NCBI GenBank assembly: GCA_030431485.1
Contig: JAUIIR010000010.1
Span: forward strand, 331 to 64,330
Reading direction: 5' to 3'
DNA from: Alphaproteobacteria bacterium
Lineage (GTDB): Bacteria > Pseudomonadota > Alphaproteobacteria > Rhodobacterales > Rhodobacteraceae
Length of the DNA stretch: 64,000 bases
Positions within the stretch are counted from its first letter, which is position 1. The number at the start of each line of letters is the position of its first letter. A model generated the notes under the pieces. That model was not told the origin of the DNA. It ran no database searches and was given only the letters and a program-made list of their open reading frames with translations. Shown here one piece after another: positions 25,672 to 38,800 of the stretch. Made by a program: the position numbers and the translations under genes.

Positions 25672-26315
25672 GGGGATGGAGACGGCATACCGGTGTCGCC
25701 ATCGCGCTCGACCGCGAAAACGTCGATACGGACCAATTGATCCCGGCACGTTTCATGTCAACGCCACGTGCGGAAGGATACGGAGATTTCCTGTTATATG
25801 ATTTCCGTAATGACGTGTACGGAAACCCGTTATCCGACTTCCCGCTGAACGCCGTTCCGAACGCGAGTGTGCTGATTTCACGCCGTAATTTTGGCAGCGG
25901 TTCTTCACGCGAGGCGGCGGTCTATGCACTGGTCGATTTCGGAATCAGGGTTGTGATCGCGCCAAGTTTTGGGGACATCTTTGCAAGCAACGCAGTGAAC
26001 AATGGCCTGCTGCCCGCGCGGGTGTCATCGGCCGATGCTGACGCGGCCATCCGCAAACTTCAGCAGGGGCCTCTCGATACGAGTGTCGATCTTTTGGAAC
26101 GACATATCCGTCTCGGCAAGATGGCCTTTGATTTCATAATTGATGACGTCTGGCAGCAAAAGCTCATCAACGGTTGGGACGATATCGACCTGACCCAGAA
26201 CCATAAACAGGCCATCACGGCATTCCGGGCGCTACACGCGCAGGCCATGCCGTGGGCCGTACAAGTCCAACAGACCAACTTCAGGAGCGCGGGGCGGGAC
26301 ACCGTTTCGCAGTAA
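25668..26315 (+). CDS. Aconitase-superfamily dehydratase small subunit (LeuD-like)
   Basis: VDTDQLIPARF, RNFGSGSSREAAVYAL, APSFGDIF. 4-nt overlap with the large subunit gene. Confidence 0.85.
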   Translation: MRGWRRHTGVAIALDRENVDTDQLIPARFMSTPRAEGYGDFLLYDFRNDVYGNPLSDFPLNAVPNASVLISRRNFGSGSSREAAVYALVDFGIRVVIAPSFGDIFASNAVNNGLLPARVSSADADAAIRKLQQGPLDTSVDLLERHIRLGKMAFDFIIDDVWQQKLINGWDDIDLTQNHKQAITAFRALHAQAMPWAVQVQQTNFRSAGRDTVSQ

Positions 26316-26356
26316 CATCGGCCAGGGTGGCCGAAAGGGTGTAGGAGGAACTATCC

Positions 26357-27370
26357 ATGACTATGAACTTGCTCAAAGGCTGCATCGCCAGTGGCGTGCT
26401 GCTCGGGTCCGTGGCCCAAGCGGAAGAGACCATCACCGCCGTGCACGCGTTTCCCGAAACGCTGATCTATACGCAGAGCTTCCTGTCCTTTGTGGACAAG
26501 GTGAACGAAGCCGGTGAAGGCGTAATCCAGATCGAAGTGCGCGGCGGCCCCGAGGCGATTGGCATGTTCCAACAGCCCGATGCGGTGCGCGACGGGATTG
26601 TGGATATGGTCTACACGCCGGGATCGTTCTACGGCGGCGCACTACCCGAGAAAGACGCGCTTGTGGCGTCGAACCTGACCGCCATCGAGACCCGTGAAAA
26701 CGGCGGAATCGAGTTGATCGACCAGATCCATCAGGAGCGTATGGGCCTCAAGTACCTAGGCTGGTTCGACAGCGGTGTCTGCTACAACCTCTGGACCCGC
26801 AACGAGCCGTCTTTCGACGCCGATGGCAATCTTGAAGTGGATGGCCTGCGACTGCGCGGAAACGCGGTCTACAACGCGTTCTTTACCAATTATCTCGAAG
26901 CGCAGGTGATCGACCTGCCGACAGGCGAAGTGTACTCTGCGCTTCAAAACGGCGTGGTGGATGCAACAGGTTGGACCCAGATCGGCCTGATCGACCTCAA
27001 GTGGAACGAGTTCCTGAACTATCGGATCGAGCCCTGCTTCTTCTCGACTGACCTTGGTGTGATCGTCAATCTCGACACCTGGGAAGGGCTCAGCGACGAA
27101 GCGAAGACCGTCCTTCAGGATACCGCGATCCAGCATGAGATCGACAGTGTAAACGCGCTGCGCAGCAAGCGGGATGACGACTTCGCGGCACTTGATGAAG
27201 CGGGCATGAACGTGGTCTCACTCGAAGGTGAGGCAAAGGCCAACTACCTTGCCGCTGCGCGTGAAACCACATGGGCGCGGATGAAAGAACTGATGGAAGC
27301 CGAGCCGCAGTCGGTTGCGAGCTATGACGACTTGATCGGCAAGTTTTACGATCCTGCCGCAGACAATTAA
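26357..27370 (+). CDS. TRAP transporter substrate-binding protein (DctP family)
   Basis: Signal peptide MTMNLLKGCIASGVLLGSVAQA and DctP-like sequence. Followed directly by DctQ and DctM homologues. Confidence 0.8.
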   Translation: MTMNLLKGCIASGVLLGSVAQAEETITAVHAFPETLIYTQSFLSFVDKVNEAGEGVIQIEVRGGPEAIGMFQQPDAVRDGIVDMVYTPGSFYGGALPEKDALVASNLTAIETRENGGIELIDQIHQERMGLKYLGWFDSGVCYNLWTRNEPSFDADGNLEVDGLRLRGNAVYNAFFTNYLEAQVIDLPTGEVYSALQNGVVDATGWTQIGLIDLKWNEFLNYRIEPCFFSTDLGVIVNLDTWEGLSDEAKTVLQDTAIQHEIDSVNALRSKRDDDFAALDEAGMNVVSLEGEAKANYLAAARETTWARMKELMEAEPQSVASYDDLIGKFYDPAADN

Positions 27371-27424
27371 GACCAACGGGCCGGGGCATATGTCCCGGCC
27401 CAGCTTTCTCAAACGGATGACCCC

Positions 27425-27931
27425 ATGCGCGCCGTGACCCGCGTCTATGACGCTTTGCTTTACACGATGGCCTTCATCGCAGCCGTGACACTTGTCTGGC
27501 TGATGGTGTCGGTGGTGGTGTCCGTTCTGATGCGCAATCTGGGGCTTCAGCCTTTTGCATGGCTGTTCACCTCTGCAGAATACGGCATCCTTTACATGAC
27601 GATGCTTGGCGCGCCTTGGCTTGTGCGTGAAAAAGGCCATGTGCATATCGAACTGGTGACGGCAGCACTGCCCGGACCGCTGCGACGGTTCGTGAGCCGG
27701 CTGGTCGCCGCGCTCTGCGTGCTCGTTTGCGTCATCCTTGCATGGTACGGTCTGCAGCTTTTCCTGACCAATATCGAGCGCAACAACTACGATGTGCGCG
27801 CCTATTACTACCCCCGTTGGCTTTTGACAGTGACCTTTCCCATCGCCTTTTCGGTGATGGCCATCGAGTTTTCGCGGTTCGTGCTCGGGTCTGATCTCAT
27901 GCACTCGGGCGAAGCGGGGATTCACGAATAA
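27425..27931 (+). CDS. TRAP transporter small permease (DctQ family)
   Basis: 168-aa four-TM protein between the DctP-like and DctM-like genes. Its stop overlaps the next start (TAATG). Confidence 0.8.
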   Translation: MRAVTRVYDALLYTMAFIAAVTLVWLMVSVVVSVLMRNLGLQPFAWLFTSAEYGILYMTMLGAPWLVREKGHVHIELVTAALPGPLRRFVSRLVAALCVLVCVILAWYGLQLFLTNIERNNYDVRAYYYPRWLLTVTFPIAFSVMAIEFSRFVLGSDLMHSGEAGIHE

Positions 27932-29241
27932 TGGAATGGTTCGAAGCCCTTGGTCTGCTGGTCGGCAGCATCATGCTCCTCATGGCAATCGGCATGCCCG
28001 TGGCGCTGGCTTTCCTTGCCGCCAACATCATCGGTGCGTGGGTGTTCATGGGCGGCGACCGTGGGGTTGTCGCGCTGCTGAACAATGGTTGGGGGGCGCT
28101 GACGATTTTTGCGCTGGTGCCCATTCCGCTGTTCCTGCTGATGGGCGAGGTCTTCTTCCAGACGGGTCTGGGCAGTCGCATGTTCTCGGCCATAGACAAA
28201 CTTCTGGGACGGTTGCCCGGTCGTCTGAGCTATGTCACCGTTCTGGGCGGCACCGGGTTTTCAACACTGTCGGGGTCGTCGATGGGATCAACCGCGCTTT
28301 TGGGGTCGCTGATGGTGCCCGAGATGAACCGGCGTGGATACAAAAGCCATATGTCCATCGGCCCAATCCTCGGAACTGGCGGGCTGGCGATCATCATTCC
28401 GCCGTCGGCGCTCGCCGTTCTGCTGGCGACGCTCGCCAAAATTGATGTAGGCGCGCTGCTGATCGCCGGGGTCATTCCCGGCTTGATCCTCGCCAGCTTC
28501 TACGTTGCGACGATCTACCTGCAAACCAAGCTCGACCCCACTGCGGCCCCTGCCTATGACGTCGAACAGATGACGGCGGCTGAGAAGCTGGGCATCCTGA
28601 TGCGCGACGTGGTGCCGATGATCGGATTGATGGTGGTCATCGTGATCATGATGATCAACGGCATCGTCACCCCGTCCGAAGCGGCGGCTTTTGGCGCGCT
28701 AGGGGTCTTGGTCCTTGCTGCCTTCTATCGCTGTCTGACTTGGGACGCAGTCAAGAAATCGGTGCGCGGCGCGTTGCGCGTGACCCTTATGGCGTACCTG
28801 ATTGTCTTTGGGTCTGCGACCTTCAGCCAGCTTCTGGCGTTCTCCGGTGCATCCAAGGGGCTGATCAATTGGGCAACGGGGTTCGATCTGGACCCGACAC
28901 TGATGCTCTTGGTGATGTTTGGTGTGCTGCTGCTCTTGGGAATGTTCATGGAGCAGATCTCCATCATGCTGTTGACTGTGCCGATCTTTTTCCCGCTCGC
29001 TCAGACGCTGGAATTCGACCCGATCTGGTTCGGCCTGATCATGCTGTTGTCGTTGGAAATCAGTTTCACCACACCGCCCTTCGGGCTCCTGCTTTTTGTG
29101 ATGAAGGGCGTGGCTCCGCCGAACACGACCATGCGCGAGATTTATCGTGCCGCGATTCCGTTCATTTTGTGCTCGCTGCTCGTGGTTGCGCTTTTGATCC
29201 TGTTCCCGTCGCTTGCGACATGGCTGCCGGGTCTGGGCTGA
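27931..29241 (+). CDS. TRAP transporter large permease (DctM family)
   Basis: 436-aa polytopic membrane protein with DctM-like motifs (LFLLMGEVF, SGSSMGSTALLGSLMVPEM). Confidence 0.85.
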   Translation: MEWFEALGLLVGSIMLLMAIGMPVALAFLAANIIGAWVFMGGDRGVVALLNNGWGALTIFALVPIPLFLLMGEVFFQTGLGSRMFSAIDKLLGRLPGRLSYVTVLGGTGFSTLSGSSMGSTALLGSLMVPEMNRRGYKSHMSIGPILGTGGLAIIIPPSALAVLLATLAKIDVGALLIAGVIPGLILASFYVATIYLQTKLDPTAAPAYDVEQMTAAEKLGILMRDVVPMIGLMVVIVIMMINGIVTPSEAAAFGALGVLVLAAFYRCLTWDAVKKSVRGALRVTLMAYLIVFGSATFSQLLAFSGASKGLINWATGFDLDPTLMLLVMFGVLLLLGMFMEQISIMLLTVPIFFPLAQTLEFDPIWFGLIMLLSLEISFTTPPFGLLLFVMKGVAPPNTTMREIYRAAIPFILCSLLVVALLILFPSLATWLPGLG

Positions 29242-29405
29242 CCTATTCCCGCAAAAGATGAGCGCCTAGGGCTGTTTGCGGCGCGGATGATCCGGCGCAG
29301 CTCAAATCGCCCAATAAATAGGCAAATAGCAAGGTTTTTGTGCGCATCATGCTCTTGGTCGCGGCATCGTCTTGCACTTCTGCCAGCACTGGGCAACCGT
29401 AAGCT

Positions 29406-30830
29406 ATGTCTGAAAACTCTGTTTTTGATGAAATGTGGGGTCGTGATGCGCAAGTTCGCGCTCCCTATAAGAACTTTTTTGACTGGTTCGATCAGGAAGA
29501 CCCGAAGCGGTTAAGGGCTAAGAACCGAGAGGCGGAAGACCTGTTCCGCCTGACCGGCATCACCTTTAATGTCTACGGTCGCGCTGAGGCTGAAGAGCGC
29601 CTGATCCCGTTCGATATCATTCCCCGTATCATCTCGGGTGCGGAGTGGGCCAAGCTGTCGCGCGGCATCGAACAGCGGGTTCGCGCAATCAACGCCTTCT
29701 TGCACGATATCTATCACACACAGGAAATCGTGAAGGCCGGGCGGATCCCGCGCGAAATGATTTCGCAGAACGAAGCATTCCAACCCAAGATGATTGGCGT
29801 CGATGTGCCTGGCGGCGTCTACACGCATATTGTCGGCATCGACCTTGTCTGCACCGGGCCGGGCGAGTTTTACGTTCTCGAAGATAACGCGCGCACTCCA
29901 TCGGGCGTGAGCTATATGCTCGAAAACAGGGAAACGATGCTGCAGATGTTCCCCGAGCTTTTCTCGAAGAACCGGGTGCAGCCTGTGCAGCAATATCCCA
30001 TCGAATTGCGCCGGTCGCTTGCGGCATGCGCACCTGCGATGGCGAATGGAGACCCGACCGTCGCCGTGCTGACGCCGGGAATCTACAACTCGGCCTATTT
30101 CGAACACGCTTTTCTTGCCGACCAGATGGGCGTCGAGCTTGTAGAAGGGCATGACCTGCGGGTGATCGACGGTCGCGTCGCAATGCGGACGACGCATGGG
30201 TATCAGCCGATCGACGTCCTGTATCGCCGGGTCGATGATGATTTTCTCGACCCGTTGAACTTCAATCCGGAAAGCCAGTTGGGTGTGCCGGGGATTATGG
30301 ATGTCTATCGCGCCGGCGGGATCACCATCGCTAATGCTCCGGGAACAGGTATTTCCGACGACAAGGCAATTTATTCCTACATGCCGGACATCGTCGAGTT
30401 CTATACCGGCGAACGGCCGTTGCTTCAGAACGTGCCGACATGGCGCTGCTCGGAACCCGATGCGCTTGCCTATGTGCTCGACAACCTCGAAGATCTTGTG
30501 GTCAAGGAGGTGCATGGCTCAGGCGGATACGGCATGCTGATTGGTCCGACCGCGACCAAGAAGGAGATCGCGAACTTCCGCAAGAAGCTTAAAGCCCGAC
30601 CCAAGAACTATATCGCGCAGCCAACCCTGAGCCTGTCTACTGTGCCGATTTTCTCGAAGACAGGTCTTGCTCCGCGTCACGTCGATCTGAGGCCGTACGT
30701 TATGGTCAGTCCGGACGGAATAAAGATCACTCCAGGTGGTTTGACCCGCGTTGCTCTCAAGAAAGGGTCTTTGGTTGTAAACTCGTCGCAAGGCGGCGGC
30801 ACCAAAGACACTTGGGTTCTGGAGGAGTAG
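29406..30830 (+). CDS. Circularly permuted ATP-grasp protein (type 2; DUF404/DUF407-like)
   Basis: 474 aa. The context is diagnostic: it is immediately followed by alpha-E, transglutaminase and Anbu genes. The sequence resembles CP ATP-grasp proteins (VLEDNARTPSGVSYMLENR, VVKEVHGSGGYGMLIGP). Confidence 0.75.
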   Translation: MSENSVFDEMWGRDAQVRAPYKNFFDWFDQEDPKRLRAKNREAEDLFRLTGITFNVYGRAEAEERLIPFDIIPRIISGAEWAKLSRGIEQRVRAINAFLHDIYHTQEIVKAGRIPREMISQNEAFQPKMIGVDVPGGVYTHIVGIDLVCTGPGEFYVLEDNARTPSGVSYMLENRETMLQMFPELFSKNRVQPVQQYPIELRRSLAACAPAMANGDPTVAVLTPGIYNSAYFEHAFLADQMGVELVEGHDLRVIDGRVAMRTTHGYQPIDVLYRRVDDDFLDPLNFNPESQLGVPGIMDVYRAGGITIANAPGTGISDDKAIYSYMPDIVEFYTGERPLLQNVPTWRCSEPDALAYVLDNLEDLVVKEVHGSGGYGMLIGPTATKKEIANFRKKLKARPKNYIAQPTLSLSTVPIFSKTGLAPRHVDLRPYVMVSPDGIKITPGGLTRVALKKGSLVVNSSQGGGTKDTWVLEE

Positions 30831-30834
30831 CGCG

Positions 30835-31776
30835 ATGTTGGGAAAAACCGCCAATGGCCTCTTCTGGATGTATCGCTACATGGAGAGGGCCGAGAACACC
30901 GCACGCCTGATCGAAACCGGCCAGCGCATCGCTCTCACGCGACTTAATCAAGGTGATGACGAATGGGCGTCCGTCCTGCAGTCGGCCGATTGCCTGAATG
31001 GCTTCCGTTCAGCGCATGACGAGATTTCGCGCGATCTGGCTGTCGACTGGATGCTGCGCAGCAAGGACAACCCATCTTCGGTAGTGTCCAGCGTCAACGC
31101 GGCACGCCAAAATGCACGCCTGGTGCGCACAGCAATCACGGGCGATGTGTGGGAGGCTGTGAACTCGGCCTACATGGCATTGAAAACCGCGCTTGCACGC
31201 AAGGTGTCAGAACGCGATTTGCCCAGTGTTCTGCGACTGATCCGCCATCACGCCGCATTGGTCCGGGGGGTGACGCATGGCACGATGCTGCGCAATGATA
31301 TCTACGATTTTGCCCGTCTTGGTACGTTCCTCGAACGTGCGGATAACACCGCCCGCATCCTTGATGTGAAGTACTACGTTTTGCTGCCCTCGGCACGGGC
31401 AGTGGGAACATCCATCGACAATGTGCAGTGGGAATCCATCCTGCGCTCGGTCTCGGCCAAGGGCGGTTTCCGGATGGAATATGGCGCGGGCGGGGGTCCC
31501 CGTGAAATCGCAGCCTTTCTGATCCTTGATCGTCGGATGCCCAGATCACTGGCGTTTTGTGCCGGTAAACTGAGCGACAACCTTGGTTATCTGGGCAGTG
31601 AAGACGATGCCGGAAATGTTTCGCGCGCGATGGTCGGCGCACTGAGAGACAGGCTCACGACCAAGAGCATTGACGATATCTTTGAATACGGGTTGCATGA
31701 GTTTCTTCAAACAACCCTTGAGGATCTGTCTGGCATTTCTCGGCAAATTGAACAGGATTTCCGGTTTTATGCCTGA
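30835..31776 (+). CDS. Alpha-E domain protein (DUF403-like)
   Basis: The N-terminus MLGKTANGLFWMYRYMERAENTARLI is the characteristic alpha-E start. 4-nt gap after the ATP-grasp gene. Confidence 0.8.
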   Translation: MLGKTANGLFWMYRYMERAENTARLIETGQRIALTRLNQGDDEWASVLQSADCLNGFRSAHDEISRDLAVDWMLRSKDNPSSVVSSVNAARQNARLVRTAITGDVWEAVNSAYMALKTALARKVSERDLPSVLRLIRHHAALVRGVTHGTMLRNDIYDFARLGTFLERADNTARILDVKYYVLLPSARAVGTSIDNVQWESILRSVSAKGGFRMEYGAGGGPREIAAFLILDRRMPRSLAFCAGKLSDNLGYLGSEDDAGNVSRAMVGALRDRLTTKSIDDIFEYGLHEFLQTTLEDLSGISRQIEQDFRFYA

Positions 31777-31797
31777 GACACATCGCACAGCCCGCTT

Positions 31798-32595
31798 ATG
31801 CGCCTGAAGATCGAACATACGACGCTCTACCGTTTTGACACTCCGGTGCTTTACGGGCTGCAGCAACTTCGCAAGACGCCGAAGTCCTCGTACAATCAGT
31901 CGGTCATCTCGTGGGAAACGCGCATTGAAGGGGGCCGCAAAGAACTCAGCTTTGAGGATCATCATCACAACACCACCGAATTGATCAGCTTTGACGCTCA
32001 TATCACTGAAATGTCGGTGATCAGCGCAGGAGAAGTTGAGGTCTCGGACACGGCTGGTGTGCTTGGCCCGCATCATGGAATGACACCGCTGTGGCTCTAT
32101 TGTCTGACCACGCCGAGGACCGAAGCAGGGGCCGGCACGCGTGCTCTTGTCAAAGGAATAAGCGCCGAACCGGATATCGCGGATTTGCACGCGCTGTCAG
32201 AGAGAATACGCACCGAGGTGCCGTACACTCTGGGTGTCTCGTCCCCTGACTGGAGTGCTGAAGACGCCATTGCGGCTAAGCAGGGGGTCTGCCAGGATCA
32301 CACCCACATCATGATTGCCTGCGCACGGGCGCTGAAATTGCCAGCCCGATATGCCAGCGGCTACCTGATGCTGAATGAAACCACCACGCAAGAGGCCATG
32401 CATGCCTGGGCTGAGGTGCATGTCGATGGGCTCGGCTGGGTCGGTTTTGACGTGTCCAATGGTGTTTCGCCTGACACACGCTATGTGCGTGTTGCGACGG
32501 GGCTGGACTATTCCGATGCAGCCCCGATATCTGGTACACGGATTGGCGGCGTGAATGAAGAACTCGACGTCCGCATCAACGTGGTTCAGCAATAA
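31798..32595 (+). CDS. Transglutaminase-family protein (Bact_transglu_N plus transglutaminase core)
   Basis: N-terminus MRLKIEHTTLYRFDTPV. Core Cys-His-Asp signature: QGVCQDHTHIMIACARALKLPARYASGYL, HAWAEVHVDGLGWVGFDVSNG. Confidence 0.85.
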   Translation: MRLKIEHTTLYRFDTPVLYGLQQLRKTPKSSYNQSVISWETRIEGGRKELSFEDHHHNTTELISFDAHITEMSVISAGEVEVSDTAGVLGPHHGMTPLWLYCLTTPRTEAGAGTRALVKGISAEPDIADLHALSERIRTEVPYTLGVSSPDWSAEDAIAAKQGVCQDHTHIMIACARALKLPARYASGYLMLNETTTQEAMHAWAEVHVDGLGWVGFDVSNGVSPDTRYVRVATGLDYSDAAPISGTRIGGVNEELDVRINVVQQ

Positions 32596-32605
32596 AGGCT
32601 CCCAA

Positions 32606-33346
32606 GTGACATATTGCGTTGGAATGATGCTGCGCAGCGGCTTGGTCTTCATGTCAGACACGCGCACCAACGCGGGGTTGGACAATATCTCGACCTTCAA
32701 AAAGATGACCATCTGGGAAGAGCCGGGCGAACGCGTGCTGACTCTTATGTCGGCGGGCAACCTTGCTACCACCCAAGCCGTGGTCAGCCTGTTGGACGAG
32801 CGCAGCAAACAACCCGAGGACCGGACGCCATCGCTGATGAAGGCGCCGTCGATGTTTCAGGCGGCTTGCATGGTTGGTGATACGCTTCGCGAGGTGATCA
32901 AGGGATTGACGGAAGGCGGTCAACGTGCCGACAGCGCCTTTGAAGCCACATTGATCCTTGGTGGACAGATCGCGGGCAGCCCGCCACGTCTGTTCCTGAT
33001 TTATCCGCAGGGCAATTTCATTGAAGCGGGAGAGGACACGCCGTTCTTTCAGATCGGAGAGATCAAATACGGTCGTCCGATCCTTGTACGCGCCTACGAC
33101 CCCGATCTGGACTTTGCAGATGCGCTCAAGCTCTTGCTTGTCAGCTTTGACTCCACGCTCAAGGCCAATCTGTCTGTTGGCGCACCGCTTGATTACTTCT
33201 GCTACACAACTGACAGCCTTGAGAAAAAGCACATTGGTCGTGTCGAAGCAGACAATCCCGAATTTCAGGCAATCTCGACTCAGTGGGGCAATGCGCTTAA
33301 GCAGGCGCTGGATACGTTGCCTGACGTCAATCTGAACACGAACTGA
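32606..33346 (+). CDS. Anbu, a proteasome-type (Ntn) protease beta-subunit homologue
   Basis: An in-frame GTG at 32606 gives (M)TYCVGMMLRSGLVFMSDTRTNAGLDNISTFKK, i.e. a Thr directly after the initiator. This matches my recollection of Anbu N-termini. The track ORF from 32555 overlaps the transglutaminase gene and is probably too long. Confidence 0.8.
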   Translation: MTYCVGMMLRSGLVFMSDTRTNAGLDNISTFKKMTIWEEPGERVLTLMSAGNLATTQAVVSLLDERSKQPEDRTPSLMKAPSMFQAACMVGDTLREVIKGLTEGGQRADSAFEATLILGGQIAGSPPRLFLIYPQGNFIEAGEDTPFFQIGEIKYGRPILVRAYDPDLDFADALKLLLVSFDSTLKANLSVGAPLDYFCYTTDSLEKKHIGRVEADNPEFQAISTQWGNALKQALDTLPDVNLNTN

Positions 33347-33369
33347 ACTTTAAGCCGGAAAGCCCTGTC

Positions 33370-34323
33370 ATGACTGCAAGCCCCGTTATCTGCGTTGGCG
33401 GTGAAAACCTTATTGATCACGTCACCCGCGATGGCGACGTGTCAGCCCTTGCCGGCGGCTCGCCGTTCAATGTTGCAATGGCGCTTGGCCGCCAACAGGC
33501 GAATGTGCACTATCTGACACCGATCTCCACAGATGAGTGGGGGGACCTTCTCGCCGATACCCTCGTTTCGTCAGGTGTTAAGCTCGCCGGGGGGCGCGTC
33601 GATGCTCCAACAACAATTGCGCGCGTCACCGTCACCAACGGGATTCCGTCTTACGTCTTTGAACGCGATGGCACAGCCGAGCGGAGGATAACTGCAGCTT
33701 CATTATCGTCTGCGATGCCATCGGAAACGCGCGCTCTCCATACGGGGTCGCTGGCCCTGACGGACGGAGCGGATGCGGATGCGTGGGAGGAGACCTGCAA
33801 AGCTGCATATGCGGCGGGTACGCTTGTTTCGCTGGACCCAAACGTCCGCCTGTCCGTCATCACCGATATCGATGCCTATCGCGCACGGATCTTCCGCATG
33901 ATGAAATCTGTGCACGTGCTCAAATTGAGCGACGAAGACCTTGAAGGCCTTTGCCCGGACATGCCGCAGGATAAAGCGCTGGATCATGTAAAGGCGCAAA
34001 GCTCGGCCGCGTTGGTGGTGATGACCAAAGGTCCAGATGGCGCAACCGCGATGCGTAGCGATGTGAGTGTCGACATCCCTGCACCGCCGGTTCCCGGACT
34101 GGTCGACACGGTCGGGGCCGGCGACACGTTTATGGCCACCCTTCTGGCGGGCTTGGCGCGGATATCTGTCTTGTCGGCGGATGCTCTGACCGTTCTGAAT
34201 GCCGAGCAAGTCGAGGCCTTGATCCGTCGCGCAGGCATGGCCGCGGCACTCAACTGCAGCCGGGCCGGGTGCAATCCGCCCACTCTGGCCGAACTTGACA
34301 CAGCGATGGCTGCGGCGGGCTGA
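33370..34323 (+). CDS. PfkB-family carbohydrate kinase (fructokinase-like)
   Basis: ICVGGENLID at the N-terminus and the C-terminal PfkB signature DTVGAGDTFMATLLAGL. Confidence 0.8.
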   Translation: MTASPVICVGGENLIDHVTRDGDVSALAGGSPFNVAMALGRQQANVHYLTPISTDEWGDLLADTLVSSGVKLAGGRVDAPTTIARVTVTNGIPSYVFERDGTAERRITAASLSSAMPSETRALHTGSLALTDGADADAWEETCKAAYAAGTLVSLDPNVRLSVITDIDAYRARIFRMMKSVHVLKLSDEDLEGLCPDMPQDKALDHVKAQSSAALVVMTKGPDGATAMRSDVSVDIPAPPVPGLVDTVGAGDTFMATLLAGLARISVLSADALTVLNAEQVEALIRRAGMAAALNCSRAGCNPPTLAELDTAMAAAG

Positions 34324-34327
34324 TCTC

Positions 34328-34984
34328 ATGGACCTTTACCTCGACACGGCCGACCAAAAAGCATGGTCAGATCTCATGCCGACCGGTGTTTTCAAAGGCA
34401 TCACGACCAACCCACTTCTGGCACAGCGTGCCGGGCTCGAATATCCAACAATCAATTGGACCGATATGGCGCAGCGCGCGCATGATCTTGGAGCGCGGGA
34501 GCTGCACGCGCAGGTGTTTGGTCCGGTCGAGACCTACGTGGATTGGGCAGGTCGACTCTATGAGGCCGGCGCCAGGGTCGGCATACAAACAGTGGTCAAG
34601 ATCCCGATGACGCCGGAAGCTCTGCATGCAGTACCTTCGGTCAAGGCGCTTGGTGGTCCGATCCTTCTGACAGCGGTCTACGATCCCAAGCAGATTTTCG
34701 TCGCGAAAGCCTTGGGCGCCGAGTTCGCGGCACCGTATTTTGGCCGCATGCACGAAGCCGGTCTGCCCGCGCTTGATCGCCTCGAACAAATGCTGGTCAT
34801 TTCAGGCGGCGCACCACGTATCCTTGTGGCTTCGCTCCGCAGTACCGAGCAAATGGTGGCGCTTGCTATGCGCGGGCTCGATTGTTTCACCCTCGCACCG
34901 GATGTGGCCAAAAGTCTGCTGTTGGATCCCATGACCGAAGAGGCGGCTGCAGCTTTCGAGGCAGCCGCCGGTCAGGGCCTATAA
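34328..34984 (+). CDS. Transaldolase-family protein of the short Fsa/TalC type
   Basis: The ATG at 34328 gives MDLYLDTADQKAWSDLMPTGVFKGITTNPLL. Candidate Schiff-base Lys in VVKIPMT. Length is about 218 aa, as in Fsa/TalC-like enzymes. Confidence 0.75.
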   Translation: MDLYLDTADQKAWSDLMPTGVFKGITTNPLLAQRAGLEYPTINWTDMAQRAHDLGARELHAQVFGPVETYVDWAGRLYEAGARVGIQTVVKIPMTPEALHAVPSVKALGGPILLTAVYDPKQIFVAKALGAEFAAPYFGRMHEAGLPALDRLEQMLVISGGAPRILVASLRSTEQMVALAMRGLDCFTLAPDVAKSLLLDPMTEEAAAAFEAAAGQGL

Positions 34985-35281
34985 AGACAAGCGACGTTCT
35001 TTTGCTCCGCCGCGCCTGCGTGGTTTCGGCAGAGCGAGATCAAGCGGCTTCAATGGGGCATCCAAAGAGGTTTTGAGCAAAGCGCAAAACTCTGCCACCG
35101 CTGGATCTGTGTCCTTGAATGGTGCGGCCGCCATAAAGGCACAGGTCGCCTCGGTCAGATAGCAGGCCTGCGGTGGTAGGCTGCCCAACCATTGCATATA
35201 GCCCAGCTGCCCGATTTCCCGCGCACGTTCCGCGGTGCGTGGATTGACCTGCAGCTGGGTCAGGGTTCGTTCGATCGACAT
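34979..35281 (-). CDS. Hypothetical 100-aa protein, the only ORF downstream of the cobalamin riboswitch
   Basis: The ATG at 35281 is preceded by GGAGGG about 6 nt upstream. Sequence: MSIERTLTQLQVNPRTAERAREIGQLGYMQWLGSLPPQACYLTEATCAFMAAAPFKDTD...PKPRRRGGAKERRLSL. I recognise no family. The track ORF (to 35482) runs into the riboswitch aptamer, so the shorter start is preferred. Confidence 0.55.
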   Translation of the reverse strand: MSIERTLTQLQVNPRTAERAREIGQLGYMQWLGSLPPQACYLTEATCAFMAAAPFKDTDPAVAEFCALLKTSLDAPLKPLDLALPKPRRRGGAKERRLSL

Positions 35282-35393
35282 AAAGCGCCCTCCGCGCTGA
35301 GACGGGCTGCATCGAGGTCGGGTCCATGAGTCGCACCACAACAGCGCAAGGCATGTCGACCTCCGGTGCACCCCGCCCGGGTTCAGTTCACAT

Positions 35394-35562
35394 GTGATGG
35401 CAGGTCTCCTGACTTGCGGGTCATCATGCGGTTCGCACCTTCCCAGGCTCATCGGCCCAGTGGTCTTGCGCGAAGCACTCACCGCTTACAGTTGCGGGGG
35501 CAGTCACGGATTTTCACCGTATTCCCTATTCGGACAGCGCGTAGCACGCTGCCCACCATCAC
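35394..35562 (-). promoter_or_regulatory. Cobalamin (B12) riboswitch aptamer
   Basis: The minus strand reads GGUGAUGGUGGGCAGCGUGCUACGCGCUGUCCGAAUAGGGAAUACGGUGAAAAUCCGUGACUGCCCCCGCAACUGUAAGCGGUGAG..GACCACUGGGCC..CUGGGAAGGUGCG..CAAGUCAGGAGACCUGCCAUCAC. All hallmark blocks are present: AAUAGGGAA, GGUGAAAAUCC, GCCCCCGCAACUGUAA, GCCACUGG-like, GGGAAGG and the B12 box AGUCAGGAGACCUGCC. A closing P1 helix pairs GUGAUGG with CCAUCAC. Confidence 0.88.
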
Positions 35563-35802
35563 CCCGCACTGTCACAGAGGACGCGATTCCAGGCAATCGA
35601 ATTTCATGCCTCTGTCGAATTCGACGCAGTTCCCGGAGCGCCTTCACAGATTGTTAAGCTCCGGGTGCAAAAAACCGGCAGAACCGAGGCAAGTTTGCCC
35701 GAATTGATCACCCCAGGAAATCGTGTGATGCGCAAGATCAGGCAATTTCAATCACATCGCCGGCTGTGTGCCGCTGCTGGAAAGCAGGATCATCGGGATC
35801 GC

Positions 35803-38800
35803 TCATTCGATGATTGCCGGATCAGCGATCCCCACCAATTGCATCAGAAACCCATCTTCCGTCCCGTCGAGGATGTCTGCATAGATCGCATCGCTTTGCG
35901 CCAACCTGTCCTGCAGGCTGTCCCCGGTTCCGTCAAAGCCGTGCATCACCATGCGCGCCTCATCGACATCGGACATGCCGCGCGTGACTGCGAAATGCCC
36001 TCCGAGCAGAACCTTGTTCGCCAAATAGGCGGCATCGGCCGGGCTGCCGGTCTCGGCTTTAGCGCCTGCGAGGATCTCCTGAATAAAGGTGGGTGGAGTG
36101 ATCGCCGGATTGGTCTCAAGCAGCTCGAGCCAGAAATTCAGACCCGCCGCGTCGGGCGCGCGGCCCAGCACGTTCTGATAGACTGCTGTCACGAACTCGG
36201 ACAGGTCCGCCACCTCGCCATAAAGCGCACGGGTTTCAGGCTGATCAAAGAAGTATCCCGCGATGTCGCGGAGGCTCATGCCATCGGCAAGCTGATTGCC
36301 CCAGAAGTAAAGACCAACCGCATCCGGTGCCCGATTGAAATACGCGATATAAAGCTCGGTCAGAGCCGCCATCGCAGAACCGTCCAGTTGGGCCATGCCG
36401 TCGAACATGTCCACATCCAGACCGGCTGCACCGAAGACCGGCAAGGTCTCGGCGAACGTGACCTGATCATCCGCGTTCAGAATGCGCTGACCATCGCCAT
36501 CCGGCCGCCGATCTTCAATGACAATGGTGTCATCAGCGATACGCAGCGTGTAACTGGACTGGGCACCGCTCAGTGTGATCGGACCGTCATCGTCGCCTTG
36601 TTGGAGCCGGTTTGTGCTTTGCGCAGCCTCGTCGCTGTCGGAGACGTCCACATTCACATCAGGTCCTGCGGTCAAGGACGCAACAGTACCGTCTGTGGTC
36701 CCGCCACTATGGATGTTTTGTGTTTCACTGATCCATTGGGAGATGTTTTGGAAGTTTTGTGTGACGGTTGGGTTGAGTGTGTCTGGGAGCTGTATGTTTT
36801 GCGGGGGGAGTTGTCCTGTGAGTGTTGTGAAGTGGATGAGGGATGTGAGGAAGGAGAGTGTTGGCGTTGCGTGGCCTCCATCGTCGAGGAAGAGGTCTTC
36901 GGCGGTGAGGGTTTGCAGGCCGAGTTCGGGCGTGCTGATCATCTCTGCGACGCGGCTTCCGACGGGGATGAGGCGCACGTCGAGATCGGGGCGGGCCTGC
37001 TGGATCATCTCGGTGAGGGCCACCCACCAGCCATGCCATTCGCCGGTCATGCTGTCGCTCCATGCGTCAAGCTGCACCGGGACATCCGGGTAGCCGTCCA
37101 TCTCGGGCCAGGTCTCGTAGATGTTGATGGTGGCGCCGGGGGCACGGGCCTCGGCCCAGTCGATGATGCGCAGCGCGGCTTCGAGCGGCGAGGTGCCGGG
37201 CTCATGCCAATAGGGGCTGTCCGGGGACTGATCCTGCACATAGTTTGCCGGCGAGAGGGTGATCTGGTTGAAACCGGCTTCGGCAAAGCTCTGGCCTGCC
37301 TCCGGGTCCCAGGCGTTCTCGACGCCCTCAAGCCACAGCGTGGGATTGGCCGGCAGATCGTCATGCTGGGTCAGCATGCCGGTCTGGATCGAGGTGGCAT
37401 AGGAGATGCCGGACTGGGCGGCCATCTGCACCATCCAGTGAGGGACCGAATGCTCGGGGGCGTTGTCGGCCAGGGCGAAGAGCCCGTTGCCGAAAACATA
37501 TTCGCGGATCTCGGTGACGGTATCGATCACGGGCTGCGGCGTGGGTTCAGGCTGCGGCGCAGGCCGTGGCTGGGGCACAGGTGTCGGTGTGGGCTCCGGT
37601 ACAGGCAGCGGCTGCGGCTCGGGCTGCGGCGTGGGCACCGGGGTCGGCACGGGGGCGCCCTCGTCCTCCGGCGCGGGCGCAGGGCCCGGCACGGGGCCAA
37701 AGTCGAAATCGGCGTTGCCCCAGGTGCCGTCCTTCATGGTGGCGGGGGCGGGATGGCTGTCCATGAACGCCACCACGGCATCATGGCGTGCGGTGCTGTC
37801 CTGCAGGTGGCGCAGCGATCCCCAGCTGCCCCATTGGCTGGGCTCGGAGACATCGACGAAGGCGTTGAACAGCGTGCCACCAGCCGCTTCCCAGCCTGCG
37901 AGCAGCTCGGTGTAGAGCTGCCCCATACCGTCGGAATAGTTGAGATGAGTGAAGAACTCGGTGAGCTGATCGTTGTTGATCCATTGCCCGACACCGGCGA
38001 CATGGGTGCCGCCCTCGTACATCACCAGATCGAGCCCATGCGCCTCGGCGACGGATTTGTGGTAGGCGAACATCTCGAACAGGTGCTGCAGGGAATCCTC
38101 GCTATTGCCGGTGACCGACCCGTCACGCAGCTCGCGCACCGCCAGGTCCACAGCCAGATCGAAACGGTGCTCGGCAAAATAGGCCTCGGCGGCGCTGCCG
38201 CTCAGCCCACGAGCCGACGCGTCCTGACGGGCCTGAGCCTCGCTCCGGGCGATCCAGTCGAGCACCAGCGGCGCTTTGGCGTCCGTGCCGAGGCCGCCGC
38301 TGAAATAGCCGGTGATGGCGTAGGTGTCGAAGGAGAGATAGGGCGCGGCGTTGGTCGGGCTGAGCGCCTGCCATGCGGGCGCCTGCAGGATCGATTCCTC
38401 CAGCCCCGGCCAGCCGGTATGGGTGGCGATGACCTTGACCAGCCGGTCCTCGTTGCCTGCATAGACCGTGTCGAGGACGCGCGCCATCTCGGTTGCGCGG
38501 GCACCGTATTCCTGCATCCAGCCATCGCCGAGGTCCTGACCGAAGCGCGCCTCCGCAGCGGCCGCGGCCTCACGGGCCTGCTCGAACATCCAGTTCCAGA
38601 CCTCGTTGGACATCTCGATATGGGCGCGCAGATCGGGGTCGAGATTGTCGCGCACATAGGTTGCGAAATTGCGGATATAGGCCTCGTCGGCATTCCAGGG
38701 GATGTTGAACCAGGGTTCGGTGCCGGTGGCATTGGCCAGCGCGACCATGACCTCGAGGGGCACACCTTCGGAATAGCTGTAAGTGTCGGGTGTGGGACGG

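Follow-up and report, generated by a model that had tools for sequence, protein, structure and literature searches.

We analysed a 64,000-nucleotide (nt) stretch of an alphaproteobacterial genome (assembly GCA_030431485.1, contig JAUIIR010000010.1, positions 331 to 64,330; hereafter, the window), in which the ORF list and the sequence place four same-strand open reading frames (ORFs) between positions 29406 and 33346. Their products are a circularly permuted (CP) ATP-grasp protein, an Alpha-E protein, a protein of the transglutaminase-like type, and Anbu, a homologue of the proteasome beta subunit. Profile searches of the four products against Pfam and NCBIfam, together with phmmer searches against PDB sequences, identify the locus as the canonical, single-copy Anbu-1 operon of a Marivita species (Rhodobacterales), which is tightly packed and has all expected catalytic residues intact. 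The four genes are the following:

29406..30830, + strand: CP ATP-grasp amidoligase, 474 amino acids (aa), assigned by Pfam and by PDB entry 3N6X
30835..31776, + strand: Alpha-E protein, 313 aa, N-terminus MLGKTANGLFWMYRYMERAEN, assigned by Pfam
31798..32595, + strand: small transglutaminase-like (papain-fold) protein, 265 aa, with Cys165/His202/Asp218 and a C-terminus ending in VVQQ, assigned by Pfam and by PDB entry 3ISR
32606..33346, + strand: homologue of proteasome beta subunits, Anbu-1 type, 246 aa, starting at a GTG as Met-Thr and lacking a propeptide, assigned by phmmer against the PDB

An earlier model reading of the same letters (the first-pass annotation) had described four co-directional genes separated by 4, 21, and about 10 nt, which proved exact: the intergenic gaps measure 4 nt (30831-34), 21 nt (31777-97), and 10 nt (32596-605).

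The four products and their conservation

The family assignments that the first-pass annotation had proposed for the first three genes were borne out by Pfam; NCBIfam returned no model match for any of the four operon proteins. The ATP-grasp protein matched CP_ATPgrasp_2 over the entire profile (positions 1-374 of 374; E = 4.8e-167, 556 bits), with CP_ATPgrasp_1 as a second Pfam match at 3.5e-148, and it aligned over residues 5-473 to the structural-genomics entry 3N6X (E = 5.4e-193). Full-length matches to a model and to a solved member of the CP ATP-grasp family (PF14403/PF04174) are therefore both present. The adjoining gene encodes an Alpha-E protein (PF04168; E = 5.4e-87, 292.7 bits), whose Shine-Dalgarno sequence, GGAGGAG, sits within the end of the ATP-grasp gene and in which E17-R18 and E167-R168 were invariant in the homologue alignment. 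Its AlphaFold2 model was entirely helical (predicted local distance difference test, pLDDT, 89; predicted template-modelling score, pTM, 0.88). Neither a sequence search of the PDB nor a fold search found a solved relative (best Foldseek match E = 1, template-modelling (TM) score 0.27), and the model thus offers no mechanistic clue. The C-termini of both proteins were conserved among the loci compared (L028-L107), with an acidic tail VLEE, VLED, or VLEN on the ATP-grasp protein and RFYE or RFYA on Alpha-E, unlike the highly variable C-terminus of Anbu.

The third product matched Bact_transglu_N (2.7e-16) and Transglut_core (1.4e-21), and the Cys-His-Asp core that had been called intact from the sequence is indeed so: Cys165, His202, and Asp218 were invariant in 70 homologues. 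Its AlphaFold2 model (pLDDT 94.8) agreed with the sequence search in pointing to 3ISR, which Foldseek matched at TM 0.78-0.80, followed by the TG2/TG3, PeiP/PeiW, and NAT cores. The protein ends in glutamine at all 66 alphaproteobacterial loci, carries a terminal QQ in 120/120 close homologues, and retains a C-terminal Gln in 80 of 113 full-length representatives of more distant clusters (33-64% identity), against a genome background of 3.7%. Among the last 8 residues of these proteins, 29% are glutamine, versus 3.4% elsewhere. In the model, the terminal QQ of this clade directly follows beta-strand E255-264 (pLDDT about 90), which argues against a long flexible tail.

For the fourth product, the first-pass annotation had coupled its identification as a proteasome beta-subunit homologue to a proteasome-family profile search. 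The profile fell short, as the Pfam Proteasome model scored 19.6 bits, under its 22.4-bit cut-off, whereas the identity itself was confirmed by each of the five distinct PDB sequences of Anbu, which phmmer aligned to residues 1-240 at E values from 4.2e-88 to 1.5e-65 (5LOY, 4.2e-88; 5NYJ, 2.2e-74; 5NYF, 8e-74; 5NYW, 2.2e-71; 5LOX, 1.5e-65). The best match, 5LOY, is the Anbu-1 consensus design.

The longest ORF for Anbu starts at an ATG at 32555, within the transglutaminase gene, and contains an in-frame GTG at 32606 that is followed by ACA (Thr). The sequence between these two positions is the C-terminus of the transglutaminase-like protein in another frame. At the site corresponding to 32606, all Marivita loci have GTG and the other genera have ATG, and Thr (or Ser)-Tyr-Cys-Val invariably comes next; in most loci, the site lies 4-13 nt past the transglutaminase stop. 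Of the 25 relatives for which the start context was correctly read, 24 have an ATG or GTG start at this site. Because this position is conserved and the PDB Anbu alignments begin there, at residue 1-2, the product is read as Met-Thr-Tyr-Cys-Val-Gly, in agreement with the earlier proposal of a GTG-initiated Thr nucleophile with no propeptide. Thr1 is exposed in the solved Anbu proteins by methionine aminopeptidase, and proteasome inhibitors bind Pa-Anbu at Thr1 (PMC5666114).

Among 81 Anbu sequences, Asp17, Lys32, Thr20, Leu52, and Thr55 were invariant and Thr1 was present in 73. The S1 pocket at this locus reads T20/F30/S48/L52/T55, to be compared with the reference residues Asp17 and Lys32 and the Anbu-1-type S1 set T20, F30, T/S48, L52, and S/T55 (PMC5666114). 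Eight orthologues (loci L085-L092, on single-cell or metagenome-assembled contigs of uncultured Rhodobacteraceae) start Met-Ser-Tyr-Cys-Val-Gly, with Ser replacing the catalytic Thr1, and keep Asp17, Lys32, and an otherwise intact four-gene operon.

All 66 alphaproteobacterial loci retrieved showed the gene order ATP-grasp, Alpha-E, transglutaminase, Anbu; their gaps had medians of 4, 16, and 10 nt, and the operon was unchanged across the Rhodobacterales and Rhizobiales loci compared. The host genome carries Anbu and Alpha-E once each, and a genome search for a second or paralogous copy of either returned none. Anbu was also found in 21 of the 24 other genomes sampled from the same genus. The first-pass annotation thus overrated the novelty of the locus: the architecture is already known, and this copy is an ordinary member with nothing structurally special. 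The Anbu operon was reportedly described by Valas & Bourne in 2008 and by Iyer et al. in 2009. The same four-gene operon is described in PMC5666114 and PMC6376114, and Anbu structures have been solved.

Departures from this layout were seen at some gammaproteobacterial loci. Four Halothiobacillus loci (L095, L098, L100, and L101) carry ATP-grasp, Alpha-E, and Anbu, followed by a very divergent transglutaminase-like gene (22-25% identity) whose product does not end in Gln, and five Aquimonas/Lysobacterales loci (L097, L099, and L103-L105) carry ATP-grasp, Alpha-E, and Anbu with no transglutaminase match within 6 kb.

Upstream region, predicted NtrC control, and neighbouring genes

Two elements of the region upstream of the ATP-grasp gene bear on how the operon may be regulated:

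29308..29324, no strand assigned: predicted NtrC-type operator, the 17-bp (base pair) palindrome CGCCCAATAAATAGGCA, 81 nt upstream of the ATP-grasp ATG; predicted from conservation and weight matrices
29371..29376, + strand: CTTGCA, candidate -35-like promoter element; putative function, from the Marivita leader alignment

In the alignment of the 164-nt leader across Marivita, the palindrome is conserved, and CTTGCA forms the only fully conserved block besides the start region. Copies of the palindrome also stand before the Anbu operons of other Rhodobacterales and that of one Rhizobiales locus. From 31 Anbu-operon sites only, we built a symmetrised weight matrix and scanned the 4.66-Mb genome, which yielded 37 matches at 14 bits or more. 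The best of these lies before a Dus-family gene (dusB) that is followed by ntrB and ntrC. The dusB-ntrBC operon is the classic autoregulated NtrC operon. The ten highest-scoring matches also front a P-II/amtB pair (glnK-amtB), a P-II/glnA pair (glnBA), and two further amt genes, such that five of the top ten front core nitrogen operons. Conversely, a matrix built from these five nitrogen-gene sites only ranked the Anbu site 9th genome-wide.

No sigma-54 gene was detectable in the host genome, and the sigma-54-interaction domain of the host NtrC is interrupted. In Rhodobacterales, NtrC lacks the GAFTGA motif and activates sigma-70 promoters (PMC10274813). With the sigma-54-contact loop absent from Rhodobacterales NtrC and no sigma-54 gene detectable here, a sigma-70-type promoter would be expected. 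Orthologous clusters in Pseudomonas putida (PP_2685-2688; PMC7801951) and Burkholderia cenocepacia (I35_5080-5083; PMC5491218) are NtrC-dependent and induced by nitrogen limitation. From the conservation of the palindrome, the matrices applied in both directions, the lack of a detectable sigma-54 gene, and the published NtrC dependence of the orthologous clusters, we consider it likely that NtrC directly controls the Anbu operon via the predicted site at 29308-29324 and that the operon belongs to the nitrogen-starvation regulon.

Other candidates for the leader were tried and set aside. A sigma-54 promoter was rejected: the window holds one spacing variant, GG-N9-GC, but relatives do not keep its -24 GG, and no sigma-54 gene was detected in the genome. 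A leader RNA or riboswitch before the operon, such as a glutamine riboswitch, was not found in Rfam at E values up to 0.1; the sole Rfam match is an unrelated cobalamin riboswitch (RF00174, 35382-35575, - strand, 136 bits), convergent with the PfkB/Fsa pair described below. A gene for a small substrate peptide within the 164-nt leader was likewise rejected, as the ORFs of 20-75 aa there are unconserved and overlap the promoter. A consensus promoter and terminator scan gave nothing above chance in the operon region, and the 7 terminator-like matches there (5.6 expected by chance) are weak and all lie inside coding sequence, with none in the intergenic gaps.

The ATP-grasp ATG has no Shine-Dalgarno sequence (window positions 29390-29408), and a conserved GCAA(C/G) block lies about 10 nt upstream of it, about 17 nt after CTTGCA; the mRNA from which this first gene is translated may have a very short leader or none. 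Elsewhere in the host genome, further high-scoring palindromes precede genes for a PhaC polyhydroxyalkanoate synthase (C6:24830), a putative ABC substrate-binding protein (C135:8404), an arylsulfotransferase-like protein (C53:2164), a YbjN-like protein (C45:728), and the FolE2 GTP cyclohydrolase (C88:19565), as well as the atpH region (C12:29020). These are possibly additional regulon members or chance matches.

The operon is flanked upstream by DctPQM genes of a tripartite ATP-independent periplasmic (TRAP) transporter and downstream by PfkB/Fsa-like genes, with no AAA+ ATPase nearby. The gene for the PfkB-family kinase (in the region 33370-34984; fructokinase-like, under the NCBIfam cut-offs) begins 23 nt past the Anbu stop with no terminator between them, and read-through from the Anbu operon is possible. 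A PfkB gene follows Anbu by 24-33 nt in every Marivita locus (L028-L048, L067, and L093), including those that lack the TRAP genes upstream and the gene for the Fsa-like aldolase downstream, and does so in no other genus. We considered PfkB and Fsa as components of the system and rejected them: because the adjacency is limited to Marivita, they are treated as neighbours and not as parts.

Proposed function and its alternatives

The Anbu system is a long-standing orphan, a widespread relative of the proteasome that comes with three enzyme partners and has no known substrate, and the first-pass remark that its substrates and physiological role are still undefined agrees with the literature. The experiments proposed there have in part been tried elsewhere without a clear answer: the proteins were co-expressed and used in pull-downs, a T1A variant was made, and peptidase activity was assayed (PMC6376114; PMC5666114). 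Taking all the evidence together, the best explanation, which we hold to be probable on balance, is that of a canonical Anbu-1 operon under NtrC regulation whose products carry out ligation-coupled turnover. The biochemical part by itself, i.e., ligation-coupled turnover of proteins or peptides for nitrogen scavenging, is more tentative, and we would give it somewhat less than an even chance. It is the most economical reading because it joins the chemistry of the four families with nitrogen-starvation control.

In such a scheme, the ATP-grasp/Alpha-E pair would draw on ATP to turn a carboxylate into an activated acyl-phosphate and would create an amide bond on a peptide or protein. Glutamine side chains and Gln-linked or isopeptide bonds would be the targets of the Cys-His-Asp enzyme, by deamidation, transamidation, or hydrolysis, and Anbu, with Thr1 exposed upon removal of the initiator Met, would hydrolyse the peptide or protein so marked. 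Overall, this ligation-coupled turnover of proteins or peptides would free nitrogen when ammonium is scarce. The ATP-grasp protein of Yersinia bercovieri has been reported to liberate phosphate from ATP (PMC6376114).

A number of observations weigh against this account. Purified Anbu showed no peptidase activity and the four proteins formed no stable complex (PMC6376114), and Fuchs et al. report that expression in Pseudomonas aeruginosa is unchanged under many conditions (PMC5666114). The number of matches to the Anbu-site matrix is only mildly enriched, with 9 observed at 18 bits or more versus 1-4 in order-1 Markov genomes, such that the argument for NtrC is carried by the placement of the matches and not by their count. 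Another regulator of the same genes, e.g., NtrX, may also be responsible. Public reads do not help with co-transcription: run X1, although labelled METATRANSCRIPTOMIC, assembled into contigs of up to 114 kb and, over window positions 26000-36000, had a flat depth that included intergenic sequence and both strands, and it thus behaves as DNA and is not usable as expression evidence. In other RNA-labelled runs, contigs of 150-370 nt bridge the ATP-grasp/Alpha-E and transglutaminase/Anbu junctions without mismatches, for which DNA carry-over may be the source.

The regulatory half of the account has its own rival, in which the palindrome does not serve NtrC, expression of the operon is constitutive or under control unrelated to nitrogen, and Anbu serves as a general housekeeping or stress protease or as a scaffold. 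The constitutive, moderate expression in P. aeruginosa that Fuchs et al. summarise would fit this, as would the AT-rich centre of the motif in a genome of 60% GC and some high-scoring matches close to genes not evidently connected to nitrogen (atpH, YbjN-like, and FolE2). We nevertheless regard it as unlikely, given that half of the ten best matches, headed by that before dusB-ntrBC, front nitrogen operons and that NtrC dependence was established experimentally in two other proteobacterial classes.

The four enzymes could also make a product instead of turning one over. A hypothesis that PMC5666114 attributes to Iyer et al. 2009 has the ATP-grasp/Alpha-E pair build a small non-ribosomal peptide or an amide-linked metabolite, with the transglutaminase-like protein and Anbu acting as maturation or recycling peptidases. 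It gains from the deposition of 3N6X, the closest solved relative of the ATP-grasp protein, as a "putative glutathionylspermidine synthase," from the lack of a target-recognition or unfoldase gene near the operon, and from the inactivity of purified Anbu as a protease (PMC6376114). The compartment-like Anbu multimer and its binding of proteasome inhibitors speak against it, and Fuchs et al. deem such a role less likely (PMC5666114); moreover, outside Marivita the operon has no conserved association with transporter or tailoring genes. We therefore see peptide or metabolite synthesis as improbable, to about the same degree as the loss of NtrC control.

The glutamine tail raises a further alternative, more doubtful still, of Pup-like self-tagging. 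Here, the C-terminal Gln of the transglutaminase-like protein would be deamidated or thioester-activated and then ligated or extended by ATP-grasp/Alpha-E, and would mark a partner or the protein itself for Anbu. The conserved Gln or QQ, its enrichment over background, and the presence in one operon of an amidase/transamidase fold, an ATP-dependent carboxylate-amine ligase, and a proteasome homologue would all suit such a cycle. Yet in the model the tail extends only one or two residues past the beta-strand in this clade, such that it may hardly reach an active site, an enzyme of 265 aa would make an unusual tag, pull-downs show no interaction among the operon proteins (PMC6376114), and the C-termini of ATP-grasp (VLEE/VLED) and Alpha-E (RFYE/A) are likewise conserved in the sample. 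Least probable of all, in our estimate, is the broadest version, which would make the Anbu operon a core component of how Proteobacteria respond to nitrogen starvation, under direct NtrC control that persisted through a switch of promoter type from sigma-54 to sigma-70, with a Pup-like Gln-tail cycle feeding Anbu.

Ligation-coupled turnover under NtrC control remains our preferred reading. Two results from the locus are of modest practical use. The predicted NtrC operator, shared with glnBA, glnK-amtB, and ntrBC, points to nitrogen limitation as the condition under which to search for substrates in culturable Marivita or roseobacters, and the conserved C-terminal Gln suggests a specific peptide as a candidate substrate of the ATP-grasp or transglutaminase-like protein. 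This copy adds no new architecture; its value lies in a testable, predicted NtrC operator and a quantified Gln tail, neither of which makes the locus special.

Comparison with known systems

The closest counterpart is the canonical Anbu operon of P. putida (PP_2685-2688) and the loci of Y. bercovieri and P. aeruginosa, with which this copy shares the four families, their order and tight spacing, the lack of an AAA+ partner, the Met-Thr start without a propeptide, and the Anbu-1 type. It differs in the PfkB kinase gene 23 nt downstream, seen only in Marivita, and from Pseudomonas and Burkholderia in its regulation, where a GAFTGA-less NtrC and a sigma-70-type promoter are predicted here versus the sigma-54/NtrC control reported there. 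No functional breakthrough on the Anbu operon after 2018 was found in the literature.

With HslV and the 20S beta subunits, Anbu shares the N-terminal nucleophile (Ntn) hydrolase fold and the Thr1/Asp17/Lys32(33) set; unlike them, it has no propeptide and no HslU or PAN partner. The solved Anbu structures form an open helical or "lock-washer" dodecamer (PMC5666114, PMC6376114). The Pup-proteasome system of Actinobacteria (Pup-GGQ, Dop, PafA, Mpa, and 20S) invites comparison through its carboxylate-amine ligase, amidase-type enzyme, Thr protease, and C-terminal Gln. In contrast to that system, the ligase here is an ATP-grasp enzyme and not glutamine-synthetase-like, the 164-nt leader holds no small Pup-like ORF, no AAA+ gene is adjacent, and the Gln-ending protein is a 265-aa enzyme. 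The locus thus has neither a Pup-like modifier, nor a glutamine-synthetase-like PafA/Dop pair, nor an AAA+ Mpa, and the resemblance is one of analogy only.

On the regulatory side, the searchable literature yielded no report of the Anbu operon as an NtrC target in Rhodobacterales. The nearest model is the NtrC regulon of the Rhodobacter capsulatus type (nifR3-ntrBC, glnBA, and glnK-amtB), which likewise involves an NtrC without the sigma-54 loop; in the host genome, one and the same palindrome of TGC-N11-GCA geometry fronts both these operons and the Anbu operon.

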